A stretch of DNA of 61,406 bases, the filler included, from Hausera hauseri (Eukaryota), in assembly GCA_046269625.1 (NCBI GenBank). It is 10 parts of 10 records of this genome, joined end to end, with 100 filler letters (N's around TTAATTAATTAA, not from the genome) between each part and the next. Parts side by side here need not be neighbours in the genome. Positions count along the whole stretch, not along the records: positions 40,879 to 47,805 come from JBJURY010051108.1; 9 more parts are not named here. One strand, written 5' to 3'. A program made the translations under genes and the position numbers. Under the pieces are notes generated by a model. That model did not search any database. It was not told the DNA's origin and saw nothing but the letters and a program-made list of their open reading frames with translations. Below, in pieces: positions 25,500-60,824 of this stretch (its first letter is position 1; every line of letters starts with the position of its first letter).

Positions 25500-26148
25500 T
25501 GGCCTCTGCTCCACACACTGGGCATGTCGTTTTCCCATTCTCCTACGTCCATGCTTCTAAACATCCACGACACTATTTGTGTCTACATGCTTTATTGTCT
25601 AACTTCACAAATCCTTGTTTAATACTATCTCCACAGACTGGCCATATGTCCTCCTCTTCGTCGATTCCTTCTCTATCTAAATCTACCCTTGGAAAAATTT
25701 CTATAAGCTCGTAAATAAGTCCATCTTGATCTTGATACAAATATCCATGTATTATCTTTTGTTTTGGATTCACTGAGCTCTTCCAAGGGTCATACTTCAC
25801 AGGCACTAAGGTCCAATCCTTGATAATTTCTTGATCCAAATCAGGAATTTTACCCTCTGCCTGGTACTTCTGGTGCTGTCTCTTAAGCATTGTTTTAACT
25901 TGGGCGTCTACGGGTAGTGATAATTTCCCGGTCCTCTTGGATTTGAAAATGGGAGCTAAAATCGTTTGATTTCCGGATTCTCCCAATTCTTCTAGGATTT
26001 TTCGGGCCTTTACGGTCTTTATATAAAACACGACCTCTTTAATTCTGTGATGGCTACAATATTCTGCCGTGATTAGCAATTTTGCACATTCGTCGGTCGG
26101 GATATATTGAATATTTTCATTTGAACTCCTGTTATGCAGGAAATTCAC
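25500..26148 (-). pseudogene. Accessory ORF with decayed C-terminal RING-HC finger just upstream of the PPT
   Basis: Reading through stops gives (W)PVC-x-CRHK*CRGCLEAWT*ENGKTTCPVC. Confidence 0.7.
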
Positions 26149-28501: not shown

Positions 28502-28999
28502 ATTCTATTCTCTGGGTAATAAGTTCGCAACTTTTTGCTCGTTTTATACGGTAGTACTTGATATAAGAGTCAAATCCTATTTTGAATTCTTGGCTTACTG
28601 GTAGCTTACAACAAGGCTGTTGCACACAGGCATGAATAGAGTACTCTCTTTTCGGGGTTTTTCCGTTTAGTGCTTCGAAAACAATTCTAATTTCTTGACT
28701 AAGAGTTAATCCTGTTCGAACCTCTACTTGAACGCATTGTTTTTCCTGGTTTACTGAGAACTCTTTGATATTTTCATCTAATAACCTTATATTTAGGTCG
28801 ATGAATTGTAACATTTCGTCGAGTTCCATTTCGAGTAGTTTGGCCCAAGTGGGAATAAATAAGTGAAGTTGTGGGTTTACTTCAATATAAACTTCTGATG
28901 AGTTTGGTAAGTATAGTCCATAAGTAAGGATGTAGATGTGTCCATAATCTGTCGCAGCTCTGTGTATAATCTCCAAGTTCAAGATCAATTTTTCAATGA

Positions 29000-31900
29000 C
29001 GATGTATTTACGGGTCAACATCAGTGTATTTATAGTGTATTTATGGCCCTTGTTGGGCACAACATCACCCCTCCCCTTAGCAAAGCAAAACTAGAGAGGT
29101 AAGAAAGTAGAAAATGTGTAGAAACGGCGTAGGCTGTCTAAGTGATCTTTGCGTGAATAAGACGTTGTACCCCTGCAGTGTTAATCTCCTTGCTGTAGAT
29201 ACTAAATGTGACTGATTTGTGAATCGTCAATGTCTTCGAACCTGCTTGCTGAGGTGATTGAGGTACACAATGTCGGATTTGGTCGTGTAAGGTGTTGTCT
29301 TATACAGGGACGGAGAAGGAGATGGAGGAGAAGATGTAGGAGAAGAGGAAGTAAAGGTTGTGGCGGTAGTAAAAGTGGAGTTTGGAGTATATTCTGATAA
29401 AGGAGTAGAAATAAGGGTCGGCATGGGAAAGAATGCAGGAGTTGTAGCAACTCAAGTGGGAATAGGCGGACGTGTCAGAAAAGGGTAGTAGATTCAATGT
29501 GGGGGTATCGTCTACAAAAAAGGCAGTCTTGACGTTGTTGATATGCACCGCTAGTTCCTTACTGACTTTAGAAATTATGGCATTGTTAGAGTGCAATTGA
29601 ATGAGTTTGTAGGGCCCCAAATACCGTGGTTGGAAATCTCACGGTGTTTGGTTTTTCAGCCAGACAAACTTTGCAGAATATAAATCGTCGGGTAGGTACC
29701 TTTTATTGTTGTGTATGATTCTGCAGAATGAATCTTTGCTGACTGAGACAAATTGATTTTGTGCCGTACGGATAACTTTCTCTGTACGTGTATCTTCCAA
29801 GGCGGTTAACTCAAATAATGAACGTACAAGTGTTCCGAAGAGGACTTCCGTAGGTGAACAACTTGTAGAAGTAGAAGGAGTGTTTCGCCAACCCAGTAGA
29901 ACCAACGGAAGAAGAGTAGCCCAACTGCTATTGGATTCAGCGAGGATTCGCAGTGACGTTTTTAGTGTTCGGTGGAATCTCTTTAGACGACCATTCAGTT
30001 GGGGGTGATACGGTATTGTGTGTATATGGCTGATTCCTAATCGGTTAGCGAGTGATTTAAACAAGTTGGACTCAAACTAAGTGCCTTGGTCCGTAATAAT
30101 GAACCTAGGGGATCCAAACCTGCTGATCCAAGTGCGTTTGAAAACGTCGGCTATTGTGTCCGTGTTTCTGCACCGTAGCGAGACAGCTTCTGGCCAATGT
30201 GAGGAACGATCCATCATGGTCAAAATAAACTGATGACCGTTGTCAGGAGGGAGAGGACCAACAATATCTATATGTGCTGATTCGAAACAGGATGTGCAAG
30301 GGAAATGATATAGTGGTGGCTTCAAATGCTTGATGGTTTTAAATTTTTGGCAGGCCGCACATGCACGAACCCACATTTGCGTCTGTAGTGAGGATCAGCT
30401 GTGCACCATTCTTGGGGAAGCTAATATTTCGTCAGTTTTTAGACCTTCTCTTAGTTTTTCGAATTTGTTTACTAGTTCAGGAGTCCATTGTATTGGCTGG
30501 TGTTTTTTTCCACCACTGAGATGAGCAAAAGGTGCGGTAAGTTTAGAGCAGTACGGCACATGCTTATGAACGAAATGCAAAGTGCCTAAAAATCTCCTCA
30601 TTTCTGCTGTTATTCGAGGTAGTTGCACGTTTTTTAGGGCTTCAACTCAATCGGGCTGAGGCGAGTGGCCTTCGGAAGAAATAATGTGACCTAGAAAATT
30701 TATACGCTTCTGGAAAAGTGACATTTGGCGAAATTAATCTGCAGGATATGCTGGTGTAAATGTTGAAAAATTGATCTGAGGTGTTCTTCGTGTTGTTGGG
30801 TTGAAGAAGAAACAATTAATATGTCATTGATATAGGAATAAACATATGAAAAATCAGAAAGGATAGCATCGATTTGGCGTTGAAAAGTCTGCGCAACATT
30901 CCGTAGGCCAAAAAACATGTACAGATATTTGTAAATGCTAAAAGGAGTAGTGACGGCTGTTTTTTTTATATCCTCAGATGCCACAGTAATTTGGTGATAG
31001 GCTTTGGATAAATCAATTGTAGAATAAATTGTAATGGAATTGAGGCGGTGTAATATATCCTTAATAAGTGGCAGCGGGTATTCATCCATTATGGTCAAAG
31101 TGTTCGACTGGCGATAATCACCACATGGTCTAAAAGTTTCATCCTTCTTTTGCACGACATGCAATGGCAACGACCATGGGGATTTGGAGCGACGTACAAT
31201 ACCGGAGAGTTCGAGGTTTAGAAACTCGGCTTCAACATCTTGTCTTTTTGAATAATTCTAGAACAAAATACGTTGATGAATTGCTGCAGGTAATTGTAAA
31301 ATTTTTGGTGGGAGCGAGGAGGTTTTATCAGTAACTGCGGTTGTATCAATAACAGTATGAAATTGGGCGTTATTTGATGATCGAAAATGAAGTGGTATTC
31401 GATGCAGAATGGTAGTATTGAAGATGGTATACAGAAAGTAATGTTACCTAGTGACGGGATCACGTTCATCACAGTGCAATCCCCAATCGTCATTAATATC
31501 ATTTTTAATAGTTCATAAAACTAATTGCCATGATTGTAAAAAAATGGTTTGTGCAACGTTTTCTTTAATATGGGTTTTCGACTTGCATCCACCCGCACGA
31601 CAGAAGAAATGGTATCGATGTGATCCAATCGGTCCTTATTGCAACCATTTGTTAAGCAACGTTGCTTGCAATCGACAAGGAGATTATAGTGCGAAAGAAA
31701 GTCGGATCCTAAAATGGCTGTCTGGACGTTTGCAACGGTAAACGTTCATTGGAACGTTTATGTAAATTTTGGAAGGGTAAAAGAAAGCCTACATGTATCG
31801 GAAACATGTAGCGGTTGTCCGGAAGCTGTAAAAAGGGTTATTGTTGAATGAGGTGTGTTTGGTTGGAAAGGTGAGTGGCGGTAAAGAAATCGCTGCATCG

Positions 31901-33357: not shown

Positions 33358-34589
33358 TTTTTACATTCTCTGATGAGTGCCATATGGATTGCTGATTGAG
33401 TAGGAGCAGGTAAATCAACACCAGTCATTTGAAGTCGTTGACACGCTATTGCAGCTTTTCGTCTACTCAGTTTTGCTCGAGTAACCAACTGAACAGCTTC
33501 ATTTGTGCTCTGTTTCCTTTTTCTATTAACGATAAGTGTTGAAGAGCTATAATCAGTGTCATTGTCACTTACTACCTCACTACTACTTTCTTGTACCATT
33601 ATATATTCAGCAAATTTGAAGACGATGGAACTGATGGCGCCTTTACACTTGCAATTTTCTTTGAAGGGTGTACTTTTTAGGATCATCAAGCTTCATTCTA
33701 GTACATCCCACTCGATCACATGTGTATAATTGCTTGAAATAGTGATTTTTATCTTGAGAAGTCAACCAAGGCCCGTTCTTTATCGTTATGTCAAATAAAC
33801 CATTGAAGCTACGTATCACTCGAGTCTTGATTTATCTTTGTCGCTTTTCAATCACTTTTCACATTATCCTTGGTACGGATCTTTTGCCAGTAGTTGGAAA
33901 ATTCAATTTAGTCCATAATTCTAAGCATTCTTGTGATATTATTTTAATTCGTTCTTTCACATGTTTATAGCCTGACGCCAGGCTGGTATCTGTTTATTAT
34001 CTGCCATTTTGTAGGCATTTTACATAAGCTAGCTAATGATTCTTGAGTTGTGTTTTTCCTTGATCGTTTACTCTTCTCGAAATGAGCCAGATTCTTTTTC
34101 CATGATTTTTTGGCCTCGTTCCTTGCAGTAGAATTTTTGTTTGGCATCTGAAAACCGTAAACAAATGCAACAATTAGGAGTATGATTTTAAAATCTTCAA
34201 ATTAAGTATCGAGTGAAAACTAATGATTTACAAAAGATAATCTGAGAAAATAAATTTAACTTTTAAACAAATGTCACTCAATGTTAATTATCTGAAATTC
34301 ATATGCCTGCATTACGTTATTATTTTGCTAATAAATTTGACTGCCATCTGCACGATTACATTGCATGGGAACATCAAAATACACAATAATTATCATACGG
34401 TGTTCAACTACGAATCTTCAATTGTTTTTTTTTTGCAATTGAGGTTTGTCAATTACACTATTATTGTTGGGTAAGGCGTGAGTTTTTTCTTAGATACAGT
34501 ATAATCCCACTCAATCACTTTATTTCTATATGAAAGCTCATTAGAATAAGCCATGCTCATTTGCGGCTGTTCAAATTTTATACCCCTAA
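33358..34589 (-). mobile_element. hATm-like DNA transposon, 5' end with TIR (about 34465-34589) and decayed transposase start
   Basis: The terminus reads TTAGGGGTATAA on the minus strand and is an imperfect inverted copy of 39182-39306. 33950-34272 is repeated at 40455-40778. Confidence 0.65.
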
Positions 34590-34910
34590 TGTATATACAA
34601 GGTCTCTATTTTATTTTATCTTGTACTATTCGTATGCAGCTGAAAGAAAACTTCCGTATTTTAAAATATATATATATATTATAATTAACTATATTATATA
34701 GTTTGATTATTTAAACACATAAAAATTGTAATCGTAATTTTTATTATGCTTCATAAACATTTATGAATCAAGTAAATTAAATTAACGTTTAATTATAATT
34801 TTCAAATTCCAACAAAACCTAAAAATTTTGTTCATGTATTTTATCAACCATTAAATTTTAAAATTAATAAAGAATAAATAATAACAAATCAAATTTTATT
34901 TGCAAAACTT

Positions 34911-36068
34911 TCAACTACACAATTTCTTAAATTGGGAATAGTAACTTGGATGTTGAGATGCTGTTGAGAGAAATTCTGTGACTTTCTGATAACGATTATA
35001 AGTGTCAGTAGTAATAGATGTTAAATAAGAAAATAAATCATTTCGGCGATTTTCATCGTACTCTTCATTTATCGAGTTTATTATGTGACGTGTCCAGTTA
35101 TCGAAATACAAATTATAACAGTCATATCGATCTGTACTGAATAAATTGATATCTCCAACCAAATATGTCAATACGTTTCCTATATTCTCACTTTTTGAAC
35201 TTTTAAATGAGTCAAAAAGGATTTCATTTAGACATTTAATAAAATAGCAAATATCCACTTCTGTGTCACGAATTTTATTTTTCATTCCATTGATTTCGAA
35301 CTTGATATATTTCCTGAAAGATTGTCCTTTATAATTCTTAGACATTTCAAATGAAAATGTCCTAATCTTAATATAATCGGTAAAATATTTTTCTGCAGGA
35401 TTAGAACAGTTCATTGAAAAATATACCAAAATGGTTTTCATGACGGCCAACGCCTTACTGTTGACCTCAATTTCACGAGACAAAGAATCAATTAATTTAT
35501 CACACAAATAAGGATAATTAAGAATAAAATTTGTCAATGCAATATTTTTACGGAAGATAATAAGAAGTTGCATTGCGTAACTTAAAATCACCAATTTTGA
35601 ATAGCAGTTGTCATTTAAAGTTTCATTAGCATAGGAGGATAATTTTGAAAAAAATATGAAAATTTCTCCACCATTTATATTTTCCATAAATTTGTTGATT
35701 TTATTTTTATTTTCATTCCATTGAATTTCATTTCTGTGAGTATTAAATTCCTTTATCAAACTATGGGTATTTTTTGATATACTCAGCAAATCTTCAAATT
35801 CATTGATAAATCCATTTACAATATTTGCGTAGCTTTGGATTTTCGCATTATGACATAATTCTTTGAAATTCTTCAAGTCAATGAAATTGTTAAATTTATC
35901 TTCAACATTTTCGATTTTCCTTCGATCAAATGGACAACTGTTGTTTCTTTGATATATTTCAATGAAACAATTTTTACAAAGCGGGTGTTGACATGGTTTC
36001 AGTATGTAATAATCTACATTTTTATATGACTCATAACATATTGAACATTCATCAAATTTCGAATTCAT
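34911..36068 (-). CDS. Intact intronless RING-finger protein (N-terminal C3HC3D RING plus about 320 aa helical domain), putative E3 ligase
   Basis: CSIC-x-PCQHPLCKNC-x-CPFDR in an uninterrupted 385-aa ORF within very AT-rich DNA. Confidence 0.85.
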   Translation of the reverse strand: MNSKFDECSICYESYKNVDYYILKPCQHPLCKNCFIEIYQRNNSCPFDRRKIENVEDKFNNFIDLKNFKELCHNAKIQSYANIVNGFINEFEDLLSISKNTHSLIKEFNTHRNEIQWNENKNKINKFMENINGGEIFIFFSKLSSYANETLNDNCYSKLVILSYAMQLLIIFRKNIALTNFILNYPYLCDKLIDSLSREIEVNSKALAVMKTILVYFSMNCSNPAEKYFTDYIKIRTFSFEMSKNYKGQSFRKYIKFEINGMKNKIRDTEVDICYFIKCLNEILFDSFKSSKSENIGNVLTYLVGDINLFSTDRYDCYNLYFDNWTRHIINSINEEYDENRRNDLFSYLTSITTDTYNRYQKVTEFLSTASQHPSYYSQFKKLCS

Positions 36069-39000
36069 ACTAAACTAATAGTAATTATATGAAGTTAAAA
36101 GGAAATGAAATTGAAAGAAATTTAAAATAAAATTTATTTTTCTTTTATTGGATTAATTAATTTATTTGTTTTATTTTTTTAATTTCAATTTAATTTAATT
36201 TATTTTTAATTTAAAAAGTCAAATTTAACTATTTATATTTTTATTTAATTTTAGGCGTTTCTTTATAAGCATTAAATAAAAAAAATTTTAACTGAATTGT
36301 AGTATGTTTTATTCATTTGTATTTGAAAATAAATATAATGTCTGTTACTCAAAAATAGGCCGCCAAAATTCGCTCATTTCAAGAAGATTTGTTTCAGATT
36401 TCTAAAAGGAATTTTTATCCGAAATTATGTTCATTAAGTTTTTTTCATTTTTCCATATTGAAAAGATGAAAAATCCAAATCAGTGACAAATTTTGTAATG
36501 AGTAGTGACCAAAATTTAAGATTTCTTGTGATTATTAGAGATAATTGTGAATAGAAACTATGTAGAATAGCTTGTTGAAAAATTGTCATATAATACAATT
36601 TCAGCAATAGTTACAAGTAACAAAATCTCAAGACAAATATAATAAAATGTGCAAAATATTGATTGAACATTTTCTAATTTGAATTAAATAAGACAAGGCT
36701 GATGCATGCAAAACAAAAATAAGTTATACATTTACATTCATTATTTAAATTTTCACAAATAAATTGAAATTATCAAAACCGAAATTTTAATAAATTAATA
36801 AAAATTGATTTCAATTACTTTAAAATATAACCAGAATTTAATGCAACATTAAAAATTTGACACATCTACTGAACTTTTATATTTCTTTTTGTTTTAGTTC
36901 ATAGAACTATTTTTATAAAATAATTTCATTTAATGCATAATTTAGAAATTCAATAATTTTGTATTCTTCAAAATTTATGATTTCAAAAGTAAATAATAAT
37001 CCAGTAATAATTTGTTTTAAATAATTCAATTATTATGAAAAATAAAGGATGAAACAAAAATTATTAATATATATTTTTGACTTTTATTAATTTAAAATTA
37101 TTTTAATAAAATTAATTTAATATAAAAAATGCAGTCACTAATGAAATTATTTATAAATACGACTTAATGATATATTTGCACAAATTTTTATCCTAAAAAT
37201 AATTTCTCGATTTGAAAAACATTAGCAAATACAAAGATTTTTACCAATTAAAATATGAAATATGTTTGGTAATTCTAAAATTGGAAAGATATTTTTCTTT
37301 ACACCATTATTTTAGTCCGTTAACTTTCGCTATAAAATTATTAACAAAATGTTATTTTCTGATAAATTAAAAATTGTTGATTTAAATGCTCACAAAATTA
37401 ATTAAAGAAATGATTAATTAAATTTCACTTTTTAAATTATAAAATAAATTAAATTAAATTAAAATTAAAAATTCAATTCAATTTACTAATTAATTCTACA
37501 AGAGAGAAAACATTTAATTTTTAAATTTGTATCAATATCATTTTATTTTAATTTCATACAATTATTATCGGTTTTAGTATGAATTCTAAACGAGATGAAT
37601 GAATAATACATGGAGATTAGCAAAAAATCCAATATACGTTTGTTTAAATTAAATATCGTTACACTGTTTCCATGGATCGCAACTATATTGTTTTATCATA
37701 TCATAATTATTATGATAAAACAATATAATTCAAATCCATGGCAACAAGGGCATAAAATTTACCCGAATTTTTTCTGCTTACTCTTTACGCTATGAGTCAT
37801 ATGAAAATGTGAATGATTTATCATGTGTAAATTATTCTGTGTTATTTAGAATGTAAGTATTTACTAATTCATTAAAATGATATAAAAATTAACGGTTAAT
37901 TTATTTGTCAATCAATTTAAATACCATATATAATTTGTCCACAAAAATATTGAAATATTTAATATTGGTAAAATATATTAACGCTTGCAGTAACACCCGT
38001 AGCAAAATGATAAATTTCAATTTCATCATATGTATATAAACTAAAACTATATACATCCAAAATTAAGCAAAATTTATGGTACTTTTAGGTTGTCTGACAC
38101 GAATCCTGGCTTTACTATTGATTTAGCACATTTTCTGAAATCAGATACGTAATCCTGATGGGATTATCTACGTACGTGATTATTTTCACGGTTTGGAGTT
38201 GTTTGCTACAAATATAGTTCCCTTTGTAAGTATACTGCAGATGCCTTGTTGAGACACAGCCATTGAAAGAAAAGTTCAAAATTTTGTATGTTATGATAAT
38301 TAATGCATAAACCACTATGCATAAAACTACTAGAATACCTTGTATTGATGACACATGTGCCTGTTACGCACCTTTGGAATATTCAGAAAAGAAAATTAGT
38401 TTACAAATACAACACCTTCACTTAAGCAATATATTATCAACAAACCTAGCAAATATGGTATTAAAATCTTCCGAATTAATGATTTTGTTCAAATTATGCT
38501 TTGAAAGGAAGTATTTTCTGTAACAAAGGTATATTTCAAAATGAAACAAAACTATGCTTTGTGAATACTGTTACTTTTGATTTATGTAAATCATTCTTTA
38601 AATAAAAGCGGAATGTTCCATACGACAACTGGTTTACATCAATACTAATATCCAATACTCTATTTGAGTGCAGTACCACTATTCTGGTAAATACAGAGGC
38701 TTTTATTGAAGGTATTTCAAAGAAAGTTGTGAAACCGAATACAAGTAGAAAAAGAGTTGTTTACAAGGGTAACATTTTACCTGATTGTTATTGGGATAAT
38801 GGTTTCAAATCTATTTAACTCCTATCTTTATTGCACAGCGATCTTAGGAAATGTAGTGAATTAAACCTTCTCAAAATTGTATGAGATTATAGCAACAAAA
38901 TTTAGAACAAAATTCATGGATAATATAAATAATAATAATAAATATTTATTAACGGAAGTGACAACATTCATGTGAGATGAATGTCTATACTGTACAGACA

Positions 39001-39181
39001 AGATGAATAATAACATTGCTTAAGTTCTACAGTCTCTAGTACTCAACAACATTCACAGTACCATAATGATAGAGAGTTGCGCATTGATCAAGAATAAACT
39101 TATATTTATAATTATATTATATATTTATATTTATATTATATAAGACAAAAGGAAATTGGAACCTTTTCTGCATTATATATA

Positions 39182-40778
39182 TTAGGGGTATAATATGTGT
39201 ACAGCCACAAATGATCATGGCATATTCAAATGAGTTTTTATATATAAATAAGAGAAGTGAATGTGATTATGTTGTATCTGAGAAAAAACTCTCGCATTGA
39301 CCAACAAGAAATAATGAAATTGGTGCTGATCAAACTAAAGCTATACAATGTTTACAAATGTTATAATGATAAAAAGGCAAAATATGGAAAAGCCATATGC
39401 AGGAAAACTAAGAAAAAGTTAAATTTAGTTCTTTAGTCGTGATTTGTTAATAAAAGCTTTAAATTGACAATTTCCTCAGATATGCAAACAATCTTTTATA
39501 TCCTGTAACACTTTTACTGCTCTTTCAGCGCAAATGTAAGATCTTTGTGTATTTTATAGCGGAAGGAATATCACTCCAAAACTTTTGGATTATACTGATA
39601 GTTGTTGGATAATTACTAATGACTTTCTGCAATTCTTTACCATATTCTGGATGATATATCTAATCGGAAAAACACAGTTCTGCCCACTTTGCAGCAACAA
39701 GCTTTACTGCCACGCCATGTCCTGGTATGTATTCAGGAATCAGTATGTAAGCAAGGAGTAAAAAATTGTTCTCGGGTTCCATCTTGCTTGGCTAATGCTT
39801 CTCAAACTTTTGAAATTTACCATGGGGAATTTATTTTCATTCAAATAGTATTTCACTGCATAAACAATATGAATCAAAAACTGCATGTCATCTCTCCATT
39901 TCAAATCATGCTCCACTGCTGTCAAAATTTGATCTTAGGTTGTCATAATTATTACGGATTATTTGAACAAATTCACAGGAGAGATCAGGTGAGTTTGTGT
40001 GACCTCCAAATGAATCATCCATGTACAACCTTAAAACTCGATCTTACATATGGTGTTGACAGCCAACATAGAAAGGTTTCCCAGGCCAAAATTATCGAAA
40101 TGTGTCATTAACCTTTTTATCACGCCACTTTTCGCATCTGTTTTAACACATTTTTTATCTGTCACAATCATTGTTAGTAGATCGCGTCTCTACCGTCAAT
40201 TTAGCCCACAATTCTAAGCATTCTTATGATATTATTTTAGTTGGGTATTTATATATACCTATAGTGCAACATATTGTGTGTGCGAGATTCAAAAAAATGA
40301 GTAGACATTATTTAGTTCGTGTATAAATATCTGTCCGACCGACGTTATCTGTCGAACATCTTAATAATATCGAAATATTACAACGTTACATAAAAAACGT
40401 TAAATAAATTCTGCAACATTATTTTCCTCAAAAAGACATGTATATAAAATTTAGATATTATTTTAATTAATTCTTTAACGTGTTTATAGTCTGACGCCAG
40501 GCTGGTACATCTGTTTATTATTTGCCATTTTATAGGCATTTCACATAAGCTAGCTAATGATTCTTGAGTTGTATTTTTCCTTGATCGTTTATTCTTCTCG
40601 AAATGAACCAAATTATTTTCCGTGATTCTTTGGCCTCACTCCTTGCAATAGAATTTTTGTTTGGCATCTGGAAACCGTAAACAAATGCAGCAATTAAAAT
40701 ATTCAAATTAAGTATCGAGTGAAAACTAATGATTTACAAAAGATAATCTGAGAAAATAAATTTAACTTTTAAACAAAT
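39182..40778 (-). mobile_element. Second hATm-like copy (3' TIR at 39182-39306, internally deleted transposase)
   Basis: TIR starts TTAGGGGTATAA. Transposase remnants WRDDMQFL, ISQARWN and CAERAVK. Confidence 0.7.
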
Positions 40779-41174
40779 NNNNNNNNNNNNNNNNNNNNNN
40801 NNNNNNNNNNNNNNNNNNNNNNTTAATTAATTAANNNNNNNNNNNNNNNNNNNNNNNNNNNNNNNNNNNNNNNNNNNNTATTGTGTTCGTTGAAACTGCC
40901 TACTGCCCTTACTAATGGTTTCTTCAATCTCAATCACCACCCTATCGCTATTAATCTTTCAACAGACCCAATGCTAATAATTCGCCTAAGTGAACAGTTA
41001 TTACATACCACTACTATCCCCACATATACTTCACCACTAGTACAAGCCCATCTACTTAGACAGTTGTATAATCTATTAACCAGTTCATTGTATATCGAAG
41101 ACACCAACAATATGAATCATAATATCATTGAGTTAAATCTCAATTAATTTCATTTATATTCAGATCTACCGGAA

Positions 41175-42449
41175 TGCATGTTCTGCAGAGCTATTATCCC
41201 TGAAGTGTACAGATTAACACCCTGCCTACATATGGTTTGTTTATTTTGTGTGGAACAAGTCCGAGTACGAGCCCATCCTACACCATACTGCCCTGTTTGT
41301 ACATATGAAATCAAATATTGTATTCATCATAATGCATACCCATCCGACGCCGATCAATCATTACTAGATGCCCAGACCCTTGACGTCATTGAGCCTACGG
41401 ATCATACTACCTATTACTACACCTGGAACATATCCACCCCTTTTTCTATCCCAAATTTTCAACTACACATGTGTTGTCTATGTCAAAAACCTAATAGAAT
41501 AGCCTATCAATTTAGTTGTTGTAATGCTGAGTACTGTGCTCACTGCTATCAGCTAGAATCCCATCATCGATATTTAATCTGCAGTATATGTAACTTTTGC
41601 CCCCAATTTATTTACGCATATTTCCACCATCCAAGAAGAGCCCTCCTTACCATCACTAACACACCAATTCCACAAATACTCCCGACAAGATACTTCCGAC
41701 TAGAACAACAAGCATCAGTTAGAATAGAATTCCCAATTCATAAATTTGACCCCTCTATAATAACCAGACTACCACCGATTGTTCTTCAAACACCTTTACC
41801 TCACATTAATGTTATGACTCTTTTACGACAACCATCTTCAATACCACACCCACGCTATCATCCAGAACAAATTACTAGACCATTACCTGAATTGCCAGTA
41901 CCAGTACCTACAATAATACCCACACCAGCTATTTCTTATAGCCCACCATTACCAATATCTTTACAAGAAGATTGGTTTCCTGTCTTCAGCAAATGTCCAA
42001 TTGATCTTATTTCTGACCTAGCCCCTCCTGACTTATGGGCAACATTACAATCTCACTACTACGACCAACTTCCTACATACGAATGTACTATATGCCTCAC
42101 TGAAAGAGTAACAGTAGTTCAATTTCAATGTAATCACAAACTATGTGCAACCTGTTTCAACAAACTTCGATCCCAATCTCTCAAATCGATCGACCCAGAA
42201 GACGCCCTCCAGATGACTTTTCAGAACGGAATCTCGTGCCCATATTGCAGACAGCCATCAGTCTATTATCATTTCTCCTATACCTACGACAACCGAACCC
42301 AAAGATTATGCCATTGGATGAACCCAGTGAACGACGCGACTTTGACAATCAGACCCCGAAACCTCAGTTTCATCGATGCCAGTACTCAGTGTGATCCGGA
42401 GGACCGAATCCTCTTCAAAAGGGGGAGAAATGTTGAGATACTTTATTGA
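41175..42449 (+). CDS. Triple RING-finger, Pro-rich protein running through the PPT into the LTR
   Basis: CMFC..PCLHMVCLFC..CPVC; CCLC..CCNAEYCAHC..CSIC; CTIC..QCNHKLCATC..CPYC. It is in frame with upstream ORF 40881-41147 across a single TAA. Confidence 0.85.
   Translation, partial: CMFCRAIIPEVYRLTPCLHMVCLFCVEQVRVRAHPTPYCPVCTYEIKYCIHHNAYPSDADQSLLDAQTLDVIEPTDHTTYYYTWNISTPFSIPNFQLHMCCLCQKPNRIAYQFSCCNAEYCAHCYQLESHHRYLICSICNFCPQFIYAYFHHPRRALLTITNTPIPQILPTRYFRLEQQASVRIEFPIHKFDPSIITRLPPIVLQTPLPHINVMTLLRQPSSIPHPRYHPEQITRPLPELPVPVPTIIPTPAISYSPPLPISLQEDWFPVFSKCPIDLISDLAPPDLWATLQSHYYDQLPTYECTICLTERVTVVQFQCNHKLCATCFNKLRSQSLKSIDPEDALQMTFQNGISCPYCRQPSVYYHFSYTYDNRTQRLCHWMNPVNDATLTIRPRNLSFIDASTQCDPEDRILFKRGRNVEILY
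42417..42430 (+). promoter_or_regulatory. Polypurine tract
   Basis: AAAAGGGGGAGAAA immediately followed by TGTTG. Confidence 0.75.
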
Positions 42450-45400
42450 GATACTTTAACAAACTTTAACAAACAGAGATACTTTAACAAACTTTAACAA
42501 ACATCTTTACTTTGAACATTTGATGTCATCTCGACACTTTAACAAACATCTTTCGCTGTGAATATTTGGTGTCATCTTTGAATATTTGTATATACAATTT
42601 TATTTAACTTTCCTATTGCCTCGTTGTTGAGCTTTTTTGATGAGCATGTCTTCCCACTGTCGTTTATAAGTGAATTGTTACCCAAAGAGTTTTGGTGGCT
42701 GGCTGGACAAGAGTGCAAATTGTAAATTGTAAAAGGTAAAAATTTTAATTAGAATGATGCACATAACGGAAACTTCAATCAGGTACACAACGGAAACTTC
42801 AATCAAAATAATGTAAACATAACCTAAACGTTAATGAAAAATGTTGTAAATATATTAATGTAAATATACGCCTTCTGCTGAGAGCCGATAGTGTAATAGT
42901 GTAAACAAAATGAAACAGACGTAAATCTAATAAAGCAAATGGAACATAATGACAATACAAATAATGCGAACGGAAATTAATTTAATCATTGAATTTGAAT
43001 ACAGATGAAACGGTTAAATGAAGCAAACGGAAATCAATTTAAATAATGAATTCGAAAAACTAGACAATGACACACCTTTGGAAAAACCAAAATTTAAAAG
43101 TAAAATTATTACACACCTTTGGAAAAACCGAAATTTTAAAATAGTAATGACGCATTTTAGTATTACACACCTTTGGAAAAACCGAAAATTTAAAATAGGA
43201 ATGACGTATTTTAGAAAACCGGATAATGATTCATAGCGTTACGAGAATAGGTATATAAGCAGACAGTAATTTACAATTCCAACCATTATTAACTGTCAGC
43301 AATCATTGATAAACTTTGAGGTCATTGCGAACCGATTTGACAACTTCAATTCAGATATTTGAAGAAGATCGAAACAAGTTATTCCACAACTACGAGTAAA
43401 TTGTGGTCACTTGAAACAAATACTGAAATTATTCATTTAGTACAATAAGAAATCCTATTGAGTTTCCGAACGAAGATAATTATACATTGACGTCAACTAT
43501 CACCGGACAAGAATCTTATTACAGGATATTGAAGAACCGTTACTACGACAAACCGTTGCTTTATTAAATCAGAAATATAAACATATTATGGCACAACATT
43601 CACTTAATGACCGAGAATCAAATGATGAGATTCCAACCGGTATACCATTTTATATTTTAATAGAAATTTTCATTTTTGCTCACGCCACCTCGAAATTCTT
43701 ACATATGTATACTTGATATTAGTAATGATTTTATAATAATAAATGTTATATACATATTAATTGAAATATATTGCGACGTTGGTGATAATCCACCGTAAAG
43801 ATAGCACTGACGGCGACGAAGTAATTGCCCGATCGAAATTGTGGTGCGTTGAACAGTCGTGGAGTCTCATTATGCCCTCGCTATGAATGACTGCATTATC
43901 GATTTTACCGTGGAAGGACAGCAGGATTAAGTACGGATGGTTCACAATATTCTTGGTCCATGTCAATGATTGAAAAGATTCCCACTGTTTGTATTCAGTG
44001 CAGGGTATCAATCCTAAAACGATTAAACCTACTCGTGGAGTGTATGGAAATGTCTCTAGGACGGTCAGTGATATCATGAGGAAGCCAATGATGGAGCAAA
44101 AAATCCAAGTTATTAACGGATGCCATACTAACGTCAGAAGTTATTTTGAGTGTTTTAGACTGTGGTGATTATATATTTGTTTTACCCATACATGGAGAGT
44201 GACTTATGTTTATATATTTTAGTAGATGAATTAATTGTTAGATTTAACGAATATATGACTCAATAATGAGGTATGCGTTTAGGGATGTCTGATCATTTGA
44301 GAAAGGTTGGTAATTTAAAAATAACTTATCGTTAATTGAGAATGTGTAAATTAATATACTAAAGTGGTAAATGGAGGTAGTACGACTTAAATTACAAGTA
44401 TCCTTCATAGAGAACCAGAATGATAGTCACGGGTAGTAATAAATTATCAAATGGAGAAATTATTTTATAGTTTAAAGAGTTGTTATTATTAACGATGAAT
44501 TACAGTGATGGGTTTTTCCCCTCTTTATTGAGCTGGTGTAACAGGTTTAATGAGTCAATGAATTCACCTTCTAAATGATTTGCTTAGACCAGTACAGTGA
44601 TCATACTTGTTGGGGACATATTCCTTGGATGATTTTATAGTTGATGGTGTTTTGAGGTATGTGTCTCCAAGGCTAGTGTGTTCCGTTGGTAATGAAAAAG
44701 ACTTATTGTAATTCTAAAGGATATTTATTTATACCAATAAACAAAATGTTGCACTGGCTTAATAATAGTATTATGTAAATATTAACGTTCCTTATTTAAT
44801 AGTGTAATGAGTATAAATACTACTACAAAGATTTATGGTTACCTTGTAGATAAACTGCCTTGTAGATAAGTAGAATTCTGGCTGAACTGCATATTACCAG
44901 GATAGAAACTTATAGTCATTGGAACTTTACAGATGACCTCTCGATCACATTTACATTTATTAAGGTACTTGAACAGAACGGAATTAACGAAATTGGGAGG
45001 TTGCTGTGGTAGATTACAGACTGGAAATTACCGATGTTCACCAAAAGGATCAATAAGAAAAACATCCCCTATAAGATGACATTTAATAAGAAACGTGCAG
45101 ATAACTGTTGTATTTTATAGAACATATACTCATAATGGAATTCACGCGTACGCATGTTCGCCTGTATTTGAATAATTCGACTGAGTTTGAGCGTAGCATT
45201 GGATTCATGATAACGATCTGAACTTGTTGTTGAGTCGGCATTTATTTGATGATTGATACGAATACAAACAGATAGATATAGCCTGGGACATGCAAACAAA
45301 TTTAAGTTGTTGGACGTCGATAAACCAGAACGTTTATAGGTTATAATTTAAGAAACTGTAAAGAAACTTTATTAAAATTGATGATTGAAAGACGGATTTG

Positions 45401-45582
45401 CTCTAATATCAAAGGATTGCCTCAGGAAGAAAAATGAATTTTTATATGAAAAGAATAAACTCATATCTGATGATTGACGATTAGCTTATAGGAAAATAAC
45501 GTGACTACACCTTCAGGAAGACATGAAACTTTATATGTGGGTACTTAATTAAGGTTAACAACATTAACCTCTGTACCTAACA
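42431..45582 (+). repeat. Putative long (about 3.15 kb) LTR of family B; alternatively a nested LTR starting at 42842
   Basis: TGTT...AACA termini between a PPT and a PBS. U3-like direct repeats (ACACACCTTTGGAAAAACC x3 at about 43069-43185) precede TATATAAG at about 43253. Confidence 0.6.
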
Positions 45583-45589
45583 TATAAAC

Positions 45590-45607
45590 TGGTGCCCCGA
45601 GTGAGGA
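45590..45607 (+). promoter_or_regulatory. Primer-binding site for elongator tRNA-Met
   Basis: TGGTGCCCCGAGTGAGGA; 17/18 complementary to the animal elongator tRNA-Met 3' end as I recall it (TGGTGCCCCGTGTGAGGA). Confidence 0.8.
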
Positions 45608-45715
45608 ATTTACTCTAGCAAAACCCACTAGTAAAACCACTTTAGCAAAATTATCCTAACATAAATATAAGAAGTATGACAATGACACTGTATAAATGAT
45701 ATTTAATTGTTATAG

Positions 45716-45996
45716 GTAAACTTCAGGTGGAATGCCCGATATGTTTTGAAGAATTGGGCTTGAAATACGCTTTGTTCCGGTGTACACACTACATGTGTAC
45801 ACGGTGTGCGGATACATGGTTGGCAAAACGACAGAACTGTCCCTTCTGTCGCCGTAAGGTAACCAGTTATCGATACTGGAATGCCATAGTCGTCGTATTG
45901 CCCGACGAGGATGAAGAAGAGCCAAGGGTGATCAATGAAGATCCGAACGATTTATATGTAGTGGGTCCCAATGGACTCGTGTATATGGCAATTTAA
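45716..45996 (+). CDS. RING-HC finger module (no ATG; probable spliced exon)
   Basis: CPIC..RCTHYMCTRCADTW..CPFCR; candidate acceptor TTATAG ending 45715; AATAAA at 46000. Confidence 0.8.
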
Positions 45997-46174
45997 TTTA
46001 ATAAAATATTCATTTTTGGCCTTGATGAAGAACAATAGTAGATTATGGGCGGCCCAACGGAATTGGTAATAGGCGATAGGGAGACAATAATTTGATTATG
46101 GTAGTAATAGTAGTATGAAGTCTATCTTAGAAAAAGAATAAATTAAAGAATTAAATGAATTACATTGATTTCAG

Positions 46175-46398
46175 GTTGTATTATCTGCAAGAGATTTCCA
46201 GAAACTTGGGATGAAGAGGAGATTCTCTGCCCTCTATGTTGTTTAGTGGAGAAATTGAATCAACCAGAGGATTTATTTGAATGCGGTCGTTGCAGGGAGG
46301 AAACTAACCTGGGCTTAATGACCATGGATGAAGATTGTTGTTTACTATGTCCTATCTGCGCCCTATCGTATATGACTTGGAAGAAATTGATAAATTGA
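46175..46398 (+). CDS. Cys-rich tandem zinc-finger module (probable spliced exon)
   Basis: CIIC..CPLC..CGRC..CPIC; candidate acceptor TTTCAG ending 46174. Confidence 0.55.
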
Positions 46399-46613
46399 TT
46401 AATTTATGAAATATGTAATGAAAGTAAATTGATTATTGTACCTCGCGAAATTTGGTTTTGTGTCTCATATGTGCCCTAACAGGTGGAATCGTGGATCTGT
46501 GAATGATTATAATATGATACATTTTAACATATAGAAGTCGTTTTATTAGAAGGACTTATTATTGTTAGTAAATGAATATAGAAAATACTTGGAATAAACT
46601 ATTACCATTTAAG

Positions 46614-47074
46614 GAAACGGAAACAGAAATGGAAGTGGAAATGAAGACAGAGTGGAACCAGAAAAATGCCCCATCTGCCTTGAAGAACTGATGGAGGAAA
46701 GGACCACATTGCCCTGCAAGCATAGCTACTGCAGTTCCTGTATCAACATCTGGTTGGGGGAACACAACAATTGCCCTTGCTGTAGAAGAACTTGCACATT
46801 TTGTTGGGTGTGCTCCAAATTAGTAGCAGACGATTTGGCCACTCTATCGTGCAGGTATATATTTTGCCGGTCATGCATTCTCGAATATCTGGCGTGTTGT
46901 CGAATGTGCCCCTACTGCCTGGAAACGGTAGACTTTTACGTCATGGAAGGAATTATTACATACTTGAATGTCGACAACCGCCCATCCATAGTGCTAGTGA
47001 TTGATGAGGACGACGGCAGTTGGCCAGAGGCGTGGAGAAACCCGCAGCCCTATACAATATTAGACATAGTTTAG
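46614..47074 (+). CDS. Double RING-finger module (probable spliced exon)
   Basis: CPIC..LPCKHSYCSSCINIW..CPCCR then CWVC..SCRYIFCRSC..CPYC; candidate acceptor TTTAAG ending 46613; AATAAA at 47090. Confidence 0.82.
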
Positions 47075-47148
47075 AATTAAATTATTATTAATAAAAATTA
47101 ATTGTAGTAAATCGTTTATTTTTATTATTTTAAAGTTATTTTCCCGAT

Positions 47149-47430
47149 TTGAACTCTATACCCGTATTATCACACGGATTTCAACGAAAAACAATTTATC
47201 ATTACTCAGTTTATAACCCAAATGGAACTTTTACCACAATAGGAAAGGAGTGCGCTATTTGTCTTAGCGATTATTCGACCAAGCCGGTGGAACTAGTTTC
47301 CTGCAGGCATCAGTTTTGTCGCTGTTGCATAAGGGAGTGGTTCCTCAAAAATAACACATGCCCGACGTGCCGTACAACTAATAAATTGTTCTTGTACGAA
47401 TATAAATATTATACAATAAAAAACTTATAA
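47149..47430 (+). CDS. RING-HC finger module (no ATG)
   Basis: CAICL..SCRHQFCRCCIREW..TCPTCR; AATAAA at 47430. Confidence 0.82.
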   Translation: MNSIPVLSHGFQRKTIYHYSVYNPNGTFTTIGKECAICLSDYSTKPVELVSCRHQFCRCCIREWFLKNNTCPTCRTTNKLFLYEYKYYTIKNL

Positions 47431-47805: not shown

Positions 47806-48180
47806 NNNNNNNNNNNNNNNNNNNNNNNNNNNNNNNNNNNNNNNNNNNNTTAATTAATTAANNNNNNNNNNNNNNNNNNNNNNNNNNNNNNNNNNNNNNN
47901 NNNNNCACCAATATGGAAGCTGGGAAAGTTTACGCTGATTTGACTTACTTTGTTTTTGATTTTAGCTTATGATGATTAATAAATTTTATTGATTTTTTAT
48001 ATATTGTTTCTCGTCACATTAATTTAAATAGATAAATGTATACGGATAAATTAAATGATAATAAAACAAGGCACAACAACGAACAATATACATAATTTAT
48101 ACAAAACAAACAGATCACAATGAATTGTAGCAGTAATTTTATCTGTCTGTCTGCACCGAATTCTGCATGCGTGTGCGTGT

Positions 48181-50200
48181 TTATTCCAAACGCCAATATC
48201 CGTACGTCCAACTCTTATTTCGCCCTACGCACTTACGATTATCTTCATTGCATGATAAAGTCACTTTTGTATTGTTCGCCGTATACAACTGGTGCTCAAT
48301 CGATCGGATAATCGTTTGTGACACAACAGTCTTTGTCCTTCACAGATACGGCGAAAATAACCGTGGTCGATTTCCGCATTTTCGGTCCACAGTCCGTCTG
48401 AAGACTGCAGCACTTTGCACGTAGGAATATCCATTCCCAATACTGCACACGACCCTCACTTGCATCCTTGAAGCAGCCGATTTTGTTGGTGATCGCGCTG
48501 CTATACAACGGATGATCCGGTGGATAGTTTATACATCCATAACTTGCTTAGGTTTAAAACCACTTGTCCGATGTAACTTGGCCGGTCCAGAACGACTTCT
48601 TCCCGGTTTAGCAGCACCGTAACCAATCAATCGGCAATGCGCACTGAACGCCTGAACTTTGCCTTGTTCGTGTACGTGACCAACCGCTTTTCGCTATTGC
48701 ATAGGCGTACATTGAGCTGCTTTTTCAGATTCTTCACTGTTTTTCCGTACAGTGAATTGTTTTTCCGCCTTTTCGAACTTTGTACAGGCTGCGGCTCGTT
48801 TCTCCTAATTTCTATCTATGTACACCTTGAATATGTGAGCCTGAGCAAATCGGACTGCACGATGCAGCTGTGACGCGTACACGCAGATACATGTTGAACT
48901 GTAGCAGACACCAATGGACCACGTAATTCAGCTTCGGTTCATGTGTCATGAGCAGTTTCTTCACTTTTGAGCCTGACGGACATTAGTTAAATGGTGCTAC
49001 CGGTAAATCGTCCAAAACGTCATGCAGCTCATCTGGTACCACGAGATCGACCTCCATCAGATATCCGACTGAGCCTGCCATGTCTGCTCGTGGTAGGTTG
49101 ACCACTATATTATCCAGATCTTGTCTGTCGACAACCCATTCGGATGAACCGTACGGCAAGGGTTGCGAAAGCGCCCAGCCATACAGGTTATTAATATCAA
49201 TGTACAGCAGTGATGTGATATCGGTAGCACGGACCTGATGCTTGTTGACAAATATCACGCCGTCGCTAATACCAACATCAAACAGCCGGTACATTTTCGG
49301 GTCTTTCAGCAGCTCAATGTCTCGATCTAGTGACATTAGAGCTGACGCCCATCTCATTCCCGGTATGGAATAAAAGTTTAGTGGCTTCAGCCTATCTTCA
49401 GCCAACGCTTTCGCTCGAAACGCCTGGAACACATCGGCTAACAGGTACACGTCCAGGTTAAGATACTGGAGCATGTAATCCAACATGTTTCTACAGCCGA
49501 GTTTTGTCCAAGATTCTTGTGCTGTCTGATATTCAAGTTGTGTTGCCTGTCCATCGCGGCGGTAATTCCTCTGCTGTCCGGAGTCGCTCATATGATGTTA
49601 CAATGTCATATGGAAATATGCCTTTGGTGCGTGCAATGTGTGGGGAACTGCGTTGAGGTTATCGGCACGTCCGGCAAGGCATTTACTAGCTTCGTCAGTG
49701 ATTCATTGGGAAATTGCAATGAATCAAGGAAGCGTACCTGGAACCGGTTCATGCCTGCTGATGGGGACAGATACTTCTGCATTGTTGGGATAATGGACAT
49801 TTCCCAGTGCGGAAATCCGTTGATAGCCCATTTCTGTATATGGTGACAATCATAACCTCGGAAATTATGAAAGATCACCGGTAGGAATGGCTGCAAACGT
49901 CTTGCTAAATTGAATGCGTTGCATGCTGCTCCCAAGTATCGACCGGTAAAAAGGTCGTGATCCGGTACGAGCCGTTCCATTGCGTCAAGCGGTAATATTT
50001 TATGGCACAGATAACATTCCTCTGTCTCTGCAAACGTCAGGTGTTCATCTTCATCTGTTCAAATCAGGGATTTTGAGCTGTTATTCCAATACCACGGTGA
50101 GATTTCCGATTCAACTATTGTTTCCAAATGATGCAGGAATTTATGCACACAGTTCCAGCCGTGAAACATGTAATACTGCGATTGACCTTCAGCTTTTATT
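48181..50200 (-). pseudogene. Polinton pPolB, second copy (internally deleted)
   Basis: IFHNFRGYD, FLDSLQF, LDVYLLADVF, LLYIDINNLYGWA, NNSLYGKT, IGCFKD, YGYWRLE*; homologous to contig 1. Confidence 0.92.
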
Positions 50201-52974
50201 TGTACTGTGAGTAGATCGCGTCTCTACCATTTCGACCTCAACATCACTTGATGATTGTAAGATTGATTTACCCATAAGATATTTAGTATGAAAGTTTATA
50301 ACATTTATCTCCTTCATTCGGGAGATGAACCTTATTTTCCTTCTTTTTTGAATTTCCTAGCTTTCTGTTGGCTGTTTACTGAATTACCTTTGAATTAAAT
50401 TTAAACCTTAATATCCGTTTCAATTCCTCCTCACATTCACGTTAGTCAACCGATCGTTCAAAATATTTTTGAAATCAAAGTATCATGTTACAATCAGTTC
50501 ACACAAAAGTATATAGCAGGATAAATTAGTAACTTTTATTCATCTAATATGGAAACGAATTTTACTGTAAATCTGGATTATTTATGACGAATATTCAGAA
50601 GATGTGCAGAATATAATTCTGATTAACAATATGAAAAAATGCAATGATGCTCCGATAACGCATTTGGAGCCCTAAAATGTAACAGCATTTCGCACTTGTT
50701 AAAATCTCCCGCACTATGTTTACATATTTTGAACTTCGTTCCTTTTTTCGTGCTAATGTTTCTTTATTAATCGATTTACAATGTTTTCTTGATGTTCTAT
50801 CAATCTAACATGTATTGGTGCAATTTAAAATAGATAAAATTGATAAAATCAGTTTTGCACGTGCCAATCGATAGTGCACATGAAGCACTACCGATCGGTA
50901 ATGTGTTAGGCGACGGTGCCATTAGTAACCGTTGATAAGCACATTTTTGCAAATTTCACAAATCGATAGCTGCACAGTGCAGTATTAATCGAATCGATCG
51001 GGATAAAGTGCTAATCGATAGTGTACATCAGGGCGCATCGATTGGTGCACAGTTCTGGTGCACTGCACATGTGCAAGTGAGTAGATAGAAGTGATTGTTT
51101 TGCAGCACTTCTCTGATTGGTCCGCCGACCAGTTTTCCCCACTTGATTGGCTAATCTGAACATTTCACTAAAATTTTCTCACGACCGTCCCCTGGCCGAA
51201 AAGGATATCGAGCAATGGACTTTGTACCAAGTAATATCGATAGCCCGTGACGAGGTGAGCAAAAGTTAATGTAGGTACGGTATGCGAAAAATGTAATGAA
51301 AAGGCGCTAGAAGAGGAAGAAGCAAAACAGGAAATTCTCCACGTGCAACGCGAAACATGTTTCTAGCACTGAGAAAAAGTGTACAAGGGGTAGATCGACA
51401 TTGGTGATTGCAATGGACACTGTTGTATCTCGGTCAGACCATGGGAACATGAGGAAAAATCGATGGGAAAAATTTAAATGGGGAAAAATTCCCCTTACAC
51501 AAGTCAAACGGCGATGGAAATGGGTTGAGCTCATAGCCCATCAGTAGTTGAGCCTTTTATATTATAGCCGCCTCACGATAAGACGAAAGGATCCAGGTGA
51601 AAATGGCAACCGAACAAACAACCGAACCGAAAAAACGCATTGTTAAAAGTCTAAGTCAAAAAGGTAGAAGTGAGCTTTCAACCCCATTTCCCAAAAGTGC
51701 TCAGATCGACCTCGGACCACGTTTTCCCCACCTATCTCGCAATTATGAGCATTTCATGTTTTTTGGTACGAGACTTCCCCAGCCGGAAGCACACGTCACA
51801 TGTCACACATGTCACCGATGGAAATCGGTAGAGCTTGATGAGTGGAACAAAATTTTCTATTGCGGTGAGAGTCCAAAATTTTACTGGGCGGCGCTAGAAG
51901 CAAAAGAAGCAAAAGAGAAAATGTTTTGTGAGAAACGAGACACGAGTTACGAATTGTGCAATGTTCGGTGCAGATGTCAAACTGATGTAGGGGAATCGAA
52001 TGCGNNNNNNNNNNNNNNNNNNNNNNNNNNNNNNNNNNNNNNNNNNNNTTAATTAATTAANNNNNNNNNNNNNNNNNNNNNNNNNNNNNNNNNNNNNNNN
52101 NNNNACATTCTTTCTATAAATTCCATTCATTTCATACAAATTTCATGTGTCAAATCAATTTTTTCACAACAGGATATCAACATCATACCAACACATCCTG
52201 GTCATTAAGAAATTAATTAAGGAAGTCAAATAAGGATATGCCCCATGAAAGTCAAAAATATATACCACAAGACACATACAGTCTACAAAATCGAATGCAC
52301 AAAGCGCAAAGCATTCTATTTTCCATATTCGAATTTTCAAACGTTTCAATAAAAGAGATTGTTAAAACACAGAAAATATAATTAGTACTTTATGAACTGA
52401 CCGTGATCGTGTTGACTAACGAATACTAGAAACCCTTTACATAAAACAAAGCCAAAAATAAATAAAAAAGAGGAAGCAAACGAATTGACGGGCATAACCA
52501 TCGAAATGCGGAAACAAATAAAGTGGTTACTTATTTTACATAATGCCCAAATGATATATTTATTGAATTCGAAAAATCAATACTCCGAAGATCTTGAAGA
52601 AGGCAGTATCTGCCGATACGTCGATCAAATATTAAATTTTTGCAGTATCGGCCTTGTTTGAAAATAAGTATCAGAAAGTGGTTAATTTGTGCCATTTTAA
52701 CATTTTCTCTATACAATTGACAGTTGAAAACTAAGAATATTAAGAATAATAAACAGCATTTGTACAAAAGTCAGATAAATGTTCATGTTCAATCGAGCGC
52801 AATGTAATTGTCAGACGAACAACTTAAAGCCAATAATGAATCACCATTAGTGATCACCGGTGAGTGGTCGTTGGTCAGTTTACGTCAAAAATTAGTCACT
52901 CAATATACAAAACATTATTGTTGAGGCCTATGTTGGAATATTACAGTTTCTAGATTTGCTTACGCTTTCACAGA

Positions 52975-60792: not shown

Positions 60793-60824
<32 letters not shown>

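Follow-up and report, generated by a model that had tools for sequence, protein, structure and literature searches.

A candidate RING-type last gene at the polypurine tract of a highly repeated, likely gypsy-type LTR retroelement in Hausera hauseri

Cysteine-rich reading frames and LTR features of contig 7

The window analysed in this study is a stretch of 61,406 nt in which ten contigs of the Hausera hauseri assembly GCA_046269625.1 are joined by N-linkers. Its DNA is eukaryotic repeat sequence with gag and reverse-transcriptase relics as well as two fusion-protein genes. The RING open reading frame (ORF) lies on contig 7 (40879-47805, JBJURY010051108.1) and a counterpart was located on contig 5 (22654-33257).

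Contig 7 begins only about 270 nt 5' of the RING ORF, which extends over 433 codons from stop to stop (41148-42449, plus strand) and was assigned, based on its open frame and its relatives, as the last ORF of an element termed A. From 5' to 3', it comprises a RING (finger 1, 41175-41300), a RING-like cysteine cluster (41472-41600), a proline-rich linker of 135 residues with 20% proline, a further RING (finger 3, 42084-42248) and a short tail that runs through a polypurine tract. Fingers 1 and 3 exhibit all eight zinc ligands in full C3HC4 spacing. Finger 3 has a long second loop, and its C-x-I-C start and CP-x-C-R end are kept in 4/4 sequences that hold this finger. The cysteines of the middle cluster are invariant in all four sequences; the cluster lacks the histidine of a C3HC4 set, none of the four family members gave a Pfam RING match for it, and its resemblance to the other RINGs of the window is weak (HHalign probability 8.5%, P 0.004). 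The protein had been described as a triple RING, a term that suits fingers 1 and 3 but not the middle cluster, and 'two RINGs plus a RING-like cluster' is a fair description of the ORF. Finger 3 scored barely above the Pfam cut-offs (28 vs 27 bits and 22.5 vs 21 bits), finger 1 of the window copy remained below them, and a comparison with solved RINGs yielded weak matches with a best E of 0.038. Structure models were of low confidence (pLDDT 29 for the protein of the contig-7 ORF, 36 for a second model), and the Atlas matches were all below 0.9. An isoleucine together with an arginine after the last cysteine is a mark of RINGs that bind E2 enzymes. Both residues are kept in finger 3, and together with the ligand pattern they fit a predicted active ligase.

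Ahead of the RING ORF, an 88-codon open frame (40881-41147, plus strand) is in phase with it and separated by one stop. Since both variant sites listed for this frame are third codon positions, it may be the tail of a preceding gene.

The first cysteine of the RING ORF is encoded at 41175 and the first ATG follows at 41178, with no ATG ahead of the cysteine. Translation from this ATG, which lies inside finger 1, would thus yield a broken finger. A candidate splice acceptor is present at 41150-41163 (plus strand), a pyrimidine-rich stretch with a phase-1 AG ending at 41163. None of the five cysteine-rich ORFs tested on contig 7 has an ATG ahead of its first cysteine, and each has a pyrimidine-preceded AG in phase 1, a pattern to be read against a background of 0.22 phase-1 AGs per position and against acceptor criteria that were chosen after the sites had been seen. 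The agreement among the five ORFs fits splicing from a shared leader, and the message of the RING ORF is likely a spliced one.

The polypurine tract of element A (42417-42430, plus strand) stands directly before a TGT at 42431. In line with the original prediction, the ORF passes through the tract and its stop ends 19 nt after the T of this TGT. The 12-nt junction was also correctly reported to be identical on contigs 5 and 7: GGAGAAATGTTG occurs exactly twice in the window, at 42424 on the plus strand and at 25298 on the minus strand, compared with an expectation of 0.01 in 300 block shuffles of the window. Polypurine tracts directly before TG were found at three sites of the window, one of them within a simple purine-rich stretch, against 0.37 expected. 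The RING lies 168 nt ahead of the tract on contig 7 and 209 nt ahead of it on contig 5. The flanks of the two sites, taken as 300 nt to each side of the shared junction, resembled each other no better than shuffled sequence (P 0.86 and 0.11). A search of viral contigs for the junction motif returned five loci, which are chance-like matches in phage or virus DNA, none with a RING.

Downstream of the tract, an LTR-shaped slot of 3,152 bp (42431-45582, plus strand) extends from TGTT to CCTAACA, the latter at 45576-45582. The slot is of low depth and contains tandem repeats as well as TATA-like and AATAAA sites. Seven nucleotides after its end starts an 18-nt primer-binding site of the tRNA-Met type (45590-45607, plus strand), which agrees in 16/18 bases with a site given in the accessible text of PMC1084362. 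The LTR had initially been postulated and not seen; the CCTAACA end and the tRNA-Met primer site 3,152 bp on now support it, as do the shape and the plausible size of the slot. Together with the tract-TGT junction and the read-through of the RING ORF, they support the prediction that element A is an LTR retroelement whose 3' end lies here. Two shorter alternatives for the LTR, ending at 106 nt and 1,168 nt, were discarded for lack of a primer site behind them. A second LTR copy was not found in the window. Six-frame Pfam scans of the slot gave no match, hence no host-gene cargo is shown in it. The head of the slot, TGTTG, is not the exact inverse of its tail, CCTAACA. At the start of the slot, a 28-nt sequence is exactly duplicated in tandem (42448-42503, plus strand); an X1 contig covering this stretch aligned with 29 gap letters relative to the window, and the duplication may be copy-specific or an assembly product. 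The primer site itself includes a GTGAG word that resembles a splice donor. In viral contigs, the primer-site motif was found at 13 loci, none with a tRNA call and none with an LTR tail.

Behind the primer site, where gag would be expected, follows a plus-strand region termed B. It comprises a single-RING ORF without an ATG before its first cysteine (45700-45996), a cysteine-rich ORF without Pfam match (46159-46398), a double-RING ORF (46613-47074) and another single-RING ORF (47134-47430), as well as an ORF with a weak BIR match that is cut by the contig end (47464-47805; E 0.058, below the cut-off). In total, region B thus holds four RINGs, one cysteine-rich ORF and one sub-threshold BIR match. 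It may be the 5' end of the same element, in a collapsed or tandem arrangement, or that of a neighbour.

Copy depth, variation and relatives of the RING ORF

Contigs of four public runs were aligned on contig 7 and their depths were summed, a measure that does not equal copy number. For X1, the summed depth reached 12,477-35,046 in the seven bins up to 42495 and 29-65 in the 13 bins from 42496 to 45498. For X2, it was 320-688 before the junction versus 0-4.5 after it. The summed contig depth hence drops several hundredfold at the junction. At 42434, 37 X1 contigs and seven X2 contigs diverge from the window, and their ends are mixed (agreement 0.56 and 0.74, respectively); one 301-nt X1 contig spans the tract-LTR junction unbroken (42387-42698). 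Near-exact X1 contigs had a depth of 25-34 in the slot and of about 6 on contig 5. The low depth of the slot suggests that most copies of the family carry other LTR bodies. An LTR repeated as often as the internal region was not observed (29-65 in the slot vs 12,000-35,000 on the ORF). The expectation that the tract borders repeated LTR sequence was therefore confirmed in so far as an LTR-shaped slot adjoins it, but the highly repeated part precedes the tract. In region B, the X1 depth ranged from 138 to 9,100 and was lower and more uneven than on the RING ORF.

Sequence variation was assessed at the best-supported 40 of 735 variant rows, 15 of which fall within the ORF. Fourteen of these 15 sites are synonymous, compared with a fraction of 0.33 expected for random transitions (P 2e-6). 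A word-index search identified two related proteins among 853 candidates, and cluster look-ups gave further near copies. A full HMMER scan of 1.84 billion representatives returned five matches, three true relatives and two borderline proteins that share the RING only, and no cellular parent of the ORF. The true relatives all derive from ENA assemblies, as proteins without a name. P0001, P0002 and P0004 share 60-67% identity with the contig-7 ORF, keep all zinc ligands and end in RILFQRGEKC, so that they stop right after the cysteine codon made by TGT, while P0006 reads past the TGT in the frame of the window and ends a few codons further. As all four proteins end at the tract-TGT, an ending at the junction is a family trait, and the exact 19 nt are specific to the window copy. 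A longer fused form was not detected in 1,144 candidates among proteins of 759-2165 residues, which is weak evidence. Related loci were absent from the viral contigs searched, and 165 pattern matches in metagenome contigs and 55 in prokaryote genomes yielded no confirmed case. These comparisons support the conclusion that the RING ORF is conserved in its relatives and appears to be under purifying selection.

A counterpart on contig 5 and comparators from metagenomes

On the minus strand of contig 5, a decayed ORF with two stops ends in a C3HC4 RING (25513-26253) whose first ligand position reads tryptophan. Read with X at the two stops, this RING scored 24.6 bits on zf-C3HC4 (cut-off 21). A decayed RING had been placed about 200 nt upstream of the junction, and it does end there, at 25513, 209 nt before the tract start at 25303. 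In another frame, 88 open codons (25284-25556, minus strand) extend across the purine tract, with a stop 8 nt past the TGT; they are likely the tail of the same broken RING ORF. The purine tract and TGTTG junction (25287-25303, minus strand) belong to an A-rich element. The A-rich block starts at 27965-29050 (minus strand) with ORFs whose last part has a weak match to fibronectin III and a transmembrane segment at the C-terminus, and its order is membrane-protein ORF, broken ORFs, RING and the last 88 codons through the tract. By eye, the stretch 26750-27260 (minus strand) resembled a DEDDh nuclease, a likeness that found no support in tests with Pfam, NCBIfam, PDB and pairwise comparison. The depth on contig 5 amounted to 17,090 in the 200 nt before the tract, 430-630 in the RING region, 28-66 in the middle of the block and 939 in the 200 nt after the junction.

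Contig 5 also contains a C-rich gag-pol relic, which spans from 33257 to about 29300 and which we take by its motifs to be CsRN1-like. It is closed by a separate purine tract with TGTTG (29051-29078, minus strand; tract at 29065-29078, TGTTG at 29064), and the sense strand shifts from C-rich to A-rich at 29064. Because the relic is closed by its own tract, the reverse transcriptase of contig 5 is probably not the carrier of the RING. Right after the gag-pol tract, where the base composition shifts, a 14-bp TGTTG...CAACA (29051-29064, minus strand) is possibly a very short LTR. The RING proteins of contigs 5 and 7 have nothing in common beyond the RING fold, and the sense strand of the contig-7 RING ORF is C-rich whereas that of the contig-5 RING block is A-rich. 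No relatives of the contig-5 RING protein were found among 233 candidates.

A metagenome scan for 16 bases of the primer site behind AACA retrieved 54 loci, most of them from one data set. Fifty of these loci continue with the same two further bases, which lay outside the query, and the three long ORFs tested behind such primer sites all proved to be gag with CCHC knuckles. In locus L038, the same CCTAACA tail is preceded by the inverse head at a distance of 2,478 nt. Several pairs of loci that are 75-94% alike behind the primer site have only about 12 nt of LTR tail in common. L015, on the other hand, shares long upstream LTR stretches with L019 and L065, which indicates that an exchange of LTR bodies is not universal. 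A mixing of LTR parts in strand transfer is known from the accessible text of PMC6894440. The loci L014-L067 represent many LTR elements with the same tRNA-Met site in one metagenome, and their LTR tails differ between close relatives; many of them have AT-rich stretches without a long ORF behind the primer site.

L046 is the only one of the 54 loci that holds such a 3' junction. One of its ORFs encodes RNase H, integrase and a membrane tail, and behind this ORF come the last ORF, the LTR, the primer site and gag. The last ORF (about 708-709 codons) runs through GGAGAAA/TGT and stops 5 nt in, ahead of an LTR of 1.8 kb. Neither L046 nor any other of the 54 loci, most of which are short 5' ends, contains a RING. 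The layout of L046 is like that of the A-rich block of contig 5, with no detectable homology. Its last ORF also appeared DEDDh-nuclease-like by eye, and six tests (Pfam, NCBIfam, PDB and pairwise) gave no support. The presence of junction and read-through without a RING in L046 suggests that both are wider traits and the RING is optional. The overlap with the LTR is 19 nt for the window ORF, 8 nt for contig 5 and 5 nt for L046; P0001, P0002 and P0004 imply 6 nt.

Further repeats and ORFs were recorded in the window. On contig 2 (5172-9736, minus strand), a Monjiviricetes-type fusion glycoprotein (7563-8690, E 2e-22) is encoded upstream of a region about 70% like a protease-reverse transcriptase stretch on the plus strand of contig 5, a gene order that is env-before-pol and Burro-like. 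Contig 4 (17724-22102, plus strand) has a different primer-like site at 17724 behind TAACA, behind which lie gag (18039), a weak match to baculovirus F (20447) and an ORF that is also present on contig 2. An intact ORF of 385 amino acids with an N-terminal RING and its own ATG (34911-36068, minus strand) is surrounded by very AT-rich DNA and has an inverted repeat nearby (36046-36252 with 37394-37601); no purine tract-TGT was found behind the ORF. Three contigs (1-4521, 47947-50206 and 57312-61058) have common stretches that are 71-82% identical, and their ORFs presumably resemble decayed protein-primed DNA polymerases of the Polinton type. On contig 6, repeated stretches (33903-34597 and 39174-40778) surround a decayed transposase-like sequence, piggyBac-like by eye.

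A probable RING gene in the last position of an LTR retroelement

We consider it probable that a highly repeated LTR retroelement, likely of the gypsy type, has the contig-7 ORF as its last gene, and that this gene encodes the element's own predicted RING ubiquitin ligase from a likely spliced message. New here are the LTR-shaped slot with its tRNA-Met primer site, the further RINGs behind it, the depth step and the synonymous bias. Contig 7 contains neither gag nor PR-RT-RH-IN; loci with the same primer site carry gag-CCHC, and L046 the RH-IN order. Neither RING of the window is tied to a reverse transcriptase, and the label gypsy type is a likely one for the contig-7 family.

To be expressed, the gene would receive its start codon from a 5' leader exon joined by splicing to the acceptor at 41163, in the manner of env or of CERV in Cer1. 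Finger 3, perhaps also finger 1, may recruit a host E2 and mark host proteins in favour of replication, with silencing, stress or cell-death factors as candidate targets of the putative ligase. LTR bodies would be exchanged between copies, so that the last gene ends within a short fixed LTR head and nothing further inside could be kept as coding sequence. In the group as a whole, the slot before the purine tract may carry a long last ORF, and some families would have gained RINGs in it, probably in repeated events. We regard the RING as a probable optional passenger rather than a trait fixed in one lineage.

The relation between elements A and B allows for a second layout, which we regard as quite conceivable while leaning somewhat against it. 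Contig 7 would then be either a head-to-tail array or the collapsed and circularly permuted assembly of one element, with A and B as the two ends of this element and the slot as its ordinary low-copy LTR. The order of 3' end, LTR, primer site and 5' region, which recurs in L046, agrees with this layout, and the depth of the near-exact X1 contigs in the slot, compared with that on contig 5, fits several LTR copies. The CCTAACA tail is the inverse of the L038 head and fits the protein ends of P0001 and P0006, and a circularly permuted LTR scaffold is described for rotifers in the accessible text of PMC5408684. The layout is difficult to reconcile, however, with the 301-nt X1 contig that crosses the tract-LTR junction, with a head that is not the exact inverse of the tail and with the lower and more uneven X1 depth of region B; moreover, the difference in contig depth could reflect allele frequency in a pooled sample.

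A more far-reaching version, which appears doubtful to us, would have contig 7 represent both ends of one tRNA-Met-primed gypsy-type family with a whole set of ubiquitin ligases. The gene of two to three fingers at the purine tract, together with the four RINGs and the BIR-like gene that follow the primer site, would be alternatively spliced from one leader exon, present in at least a thousand copies under selection, and their LTR bodies would be swapped behind a fixed head that supplies the stop. If true, this would be a retrotransposon with a DNA-virus-like ubiquitin arsenal directed against host silencing or cell death.

Among known systems, Burro/GYPSM1 elements of planarians are giant, gypsy-like and present in thousands of copies, and their accessory domains (BIR, MATH, Ub/SUMO-like, BCL2-like and AIR1) are tied to ubiquitin and apoptosis, as stated in the accessible text of PMC6431247. 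Contigs 2 and 4 of the window resemble them in an env-before-pol or gag-env layout. Burro differs in that its domains reside in the polyprotein or in an upstream ORF, and a stand-alone RING ORF at the purine tract is not described in that text. The only Burro-type feature detected here with respect to such domains is the sub-threshold BIR match of region B.

It is unlikely that the fingers are zinc-binding scaffolds instead of ligases, in a protein that binds element RNA or the nuclear export or assembly machinery. This reading would suit the middle cluster, which is non-canonical as a RING, the proline-rich linker and an Atlas lead below 0.9, to be taken as a lead only, to an arenavirus Z finger, but it is at odds with the full C3HC4 spacing of fingers 1 and 3 and with the Ile/Arg pair of finger 3, a pattern of E2-binding RINGs. 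In addition, the neighbouring ORFs of element B are strong RINGs with a BIR-like piece and point to ubiquitin and cell-death control, as in Burro (PMC6431247, accessible text). The model for a scaffold is CERV of the Ty3/gypsy element Cer1 of C. elegans, a spliced, cysteine-rich protein encoded in the same position, which has one possible C4 finger and exports genomic RNA according to the accessible text of PMC10309623. The contig-7 protein is set apart from CERV by two C3HC4 RINGs and a third cysteine cluster.

The original prediction of a single clade that always ends in a nef-like RING E3 gene overlapping the 3' LTR, with the elements of contigs 5 and 7 as sisters, seems to us rather improbable. 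In its favour are the same 12-nt junction found twice against 0.01 expected, the RINGs 168 nt and 209 nt before the tracts and the stop of both last ORFs within 20 nt of the TGT. Yet L046 combines junction and read-through with the lack of a RING, a single counter-example that is also the sole comparator 3' end among the 54 loci. Outside of the junction and the RING fold the two window elements are unlike, one sense strand is C-rich and the other A-rich, and neither is connected to a reverse transcriptase. A clade-wide rule that the last gene encodes an E3 ligase is thus not upheld; a RING within 1 kb of the junction was seen in 2/2 cases in the window and 0/1 elsewhere (L046), which is a small sample. 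The lentiviral nef is the last gene, is spliced and has the polypurine tract within its coding sequence. It extends some hundreds of bases into U3 and encodes an adaptor without a RING. The claimed nef-like position does not apply, since the ORFs described here take only 5-19 nt of the LTR and do not lie in large part in U3.

The capture of a host RING gene by template switching, as passive cargo of a non-autonomous element, is very improbable: although LTR-mediated capture of host mRNA is general in animals (accessible text of PMC5131818) and no gag-pol is linked to the RING ORF, the copies show a strong synonymous bias, all zinc ligands are kept at 60-67% identity, the close relatives all end at the purine tract, and the HMMER scan found three real relatives and no cellular parent.

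Last genes of variable content are known from Juno and Vesta of bdelloid rotifers, where a variable third ORF in env position is family-specific, was gained more than once and is said to be expressed from spliced messages (PMC5408684, accessible text). There, the cargo differs and consists of a DEDDy exonuclease, a GDSL esterase and coiled-coil or membrane proteins, and the term 'RING finger' does not occur in the accessible text. As in the GAG-ENV-POL errantiviruses of Platyhelminthes (PMC13524379, accessible text), env precedes pol in one element of the window, which encodes a Monjiviricetes-type fusion protein; unlike these viruses, the contig-7 element has no linked env. The accessible main text of PMC13524379 gave no whole-word matches for RING, BIR or ubiquitin, and RING as a whole word was likewise absent from the accessible text of PMC6338049 and PMC7264820. 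A stand-alone 3' RING gene was not described in the accessible literature on RING genes in LTR elements, mostly outside subscription papers, Repbase reports and supplements.

Few LTR retrotransposons have accessory genes of known function. If the contig-7 ORF is, as we favour, the last gene of such an element and encodes a RING ligase, its conservation and the great abundance of the family would make the protein a candidate means by which the element itself counters host control. A simple rule may also follow from the layout: exchange of LTR bodies would leave the fixed LTR head as the only place for a last gene to stop.
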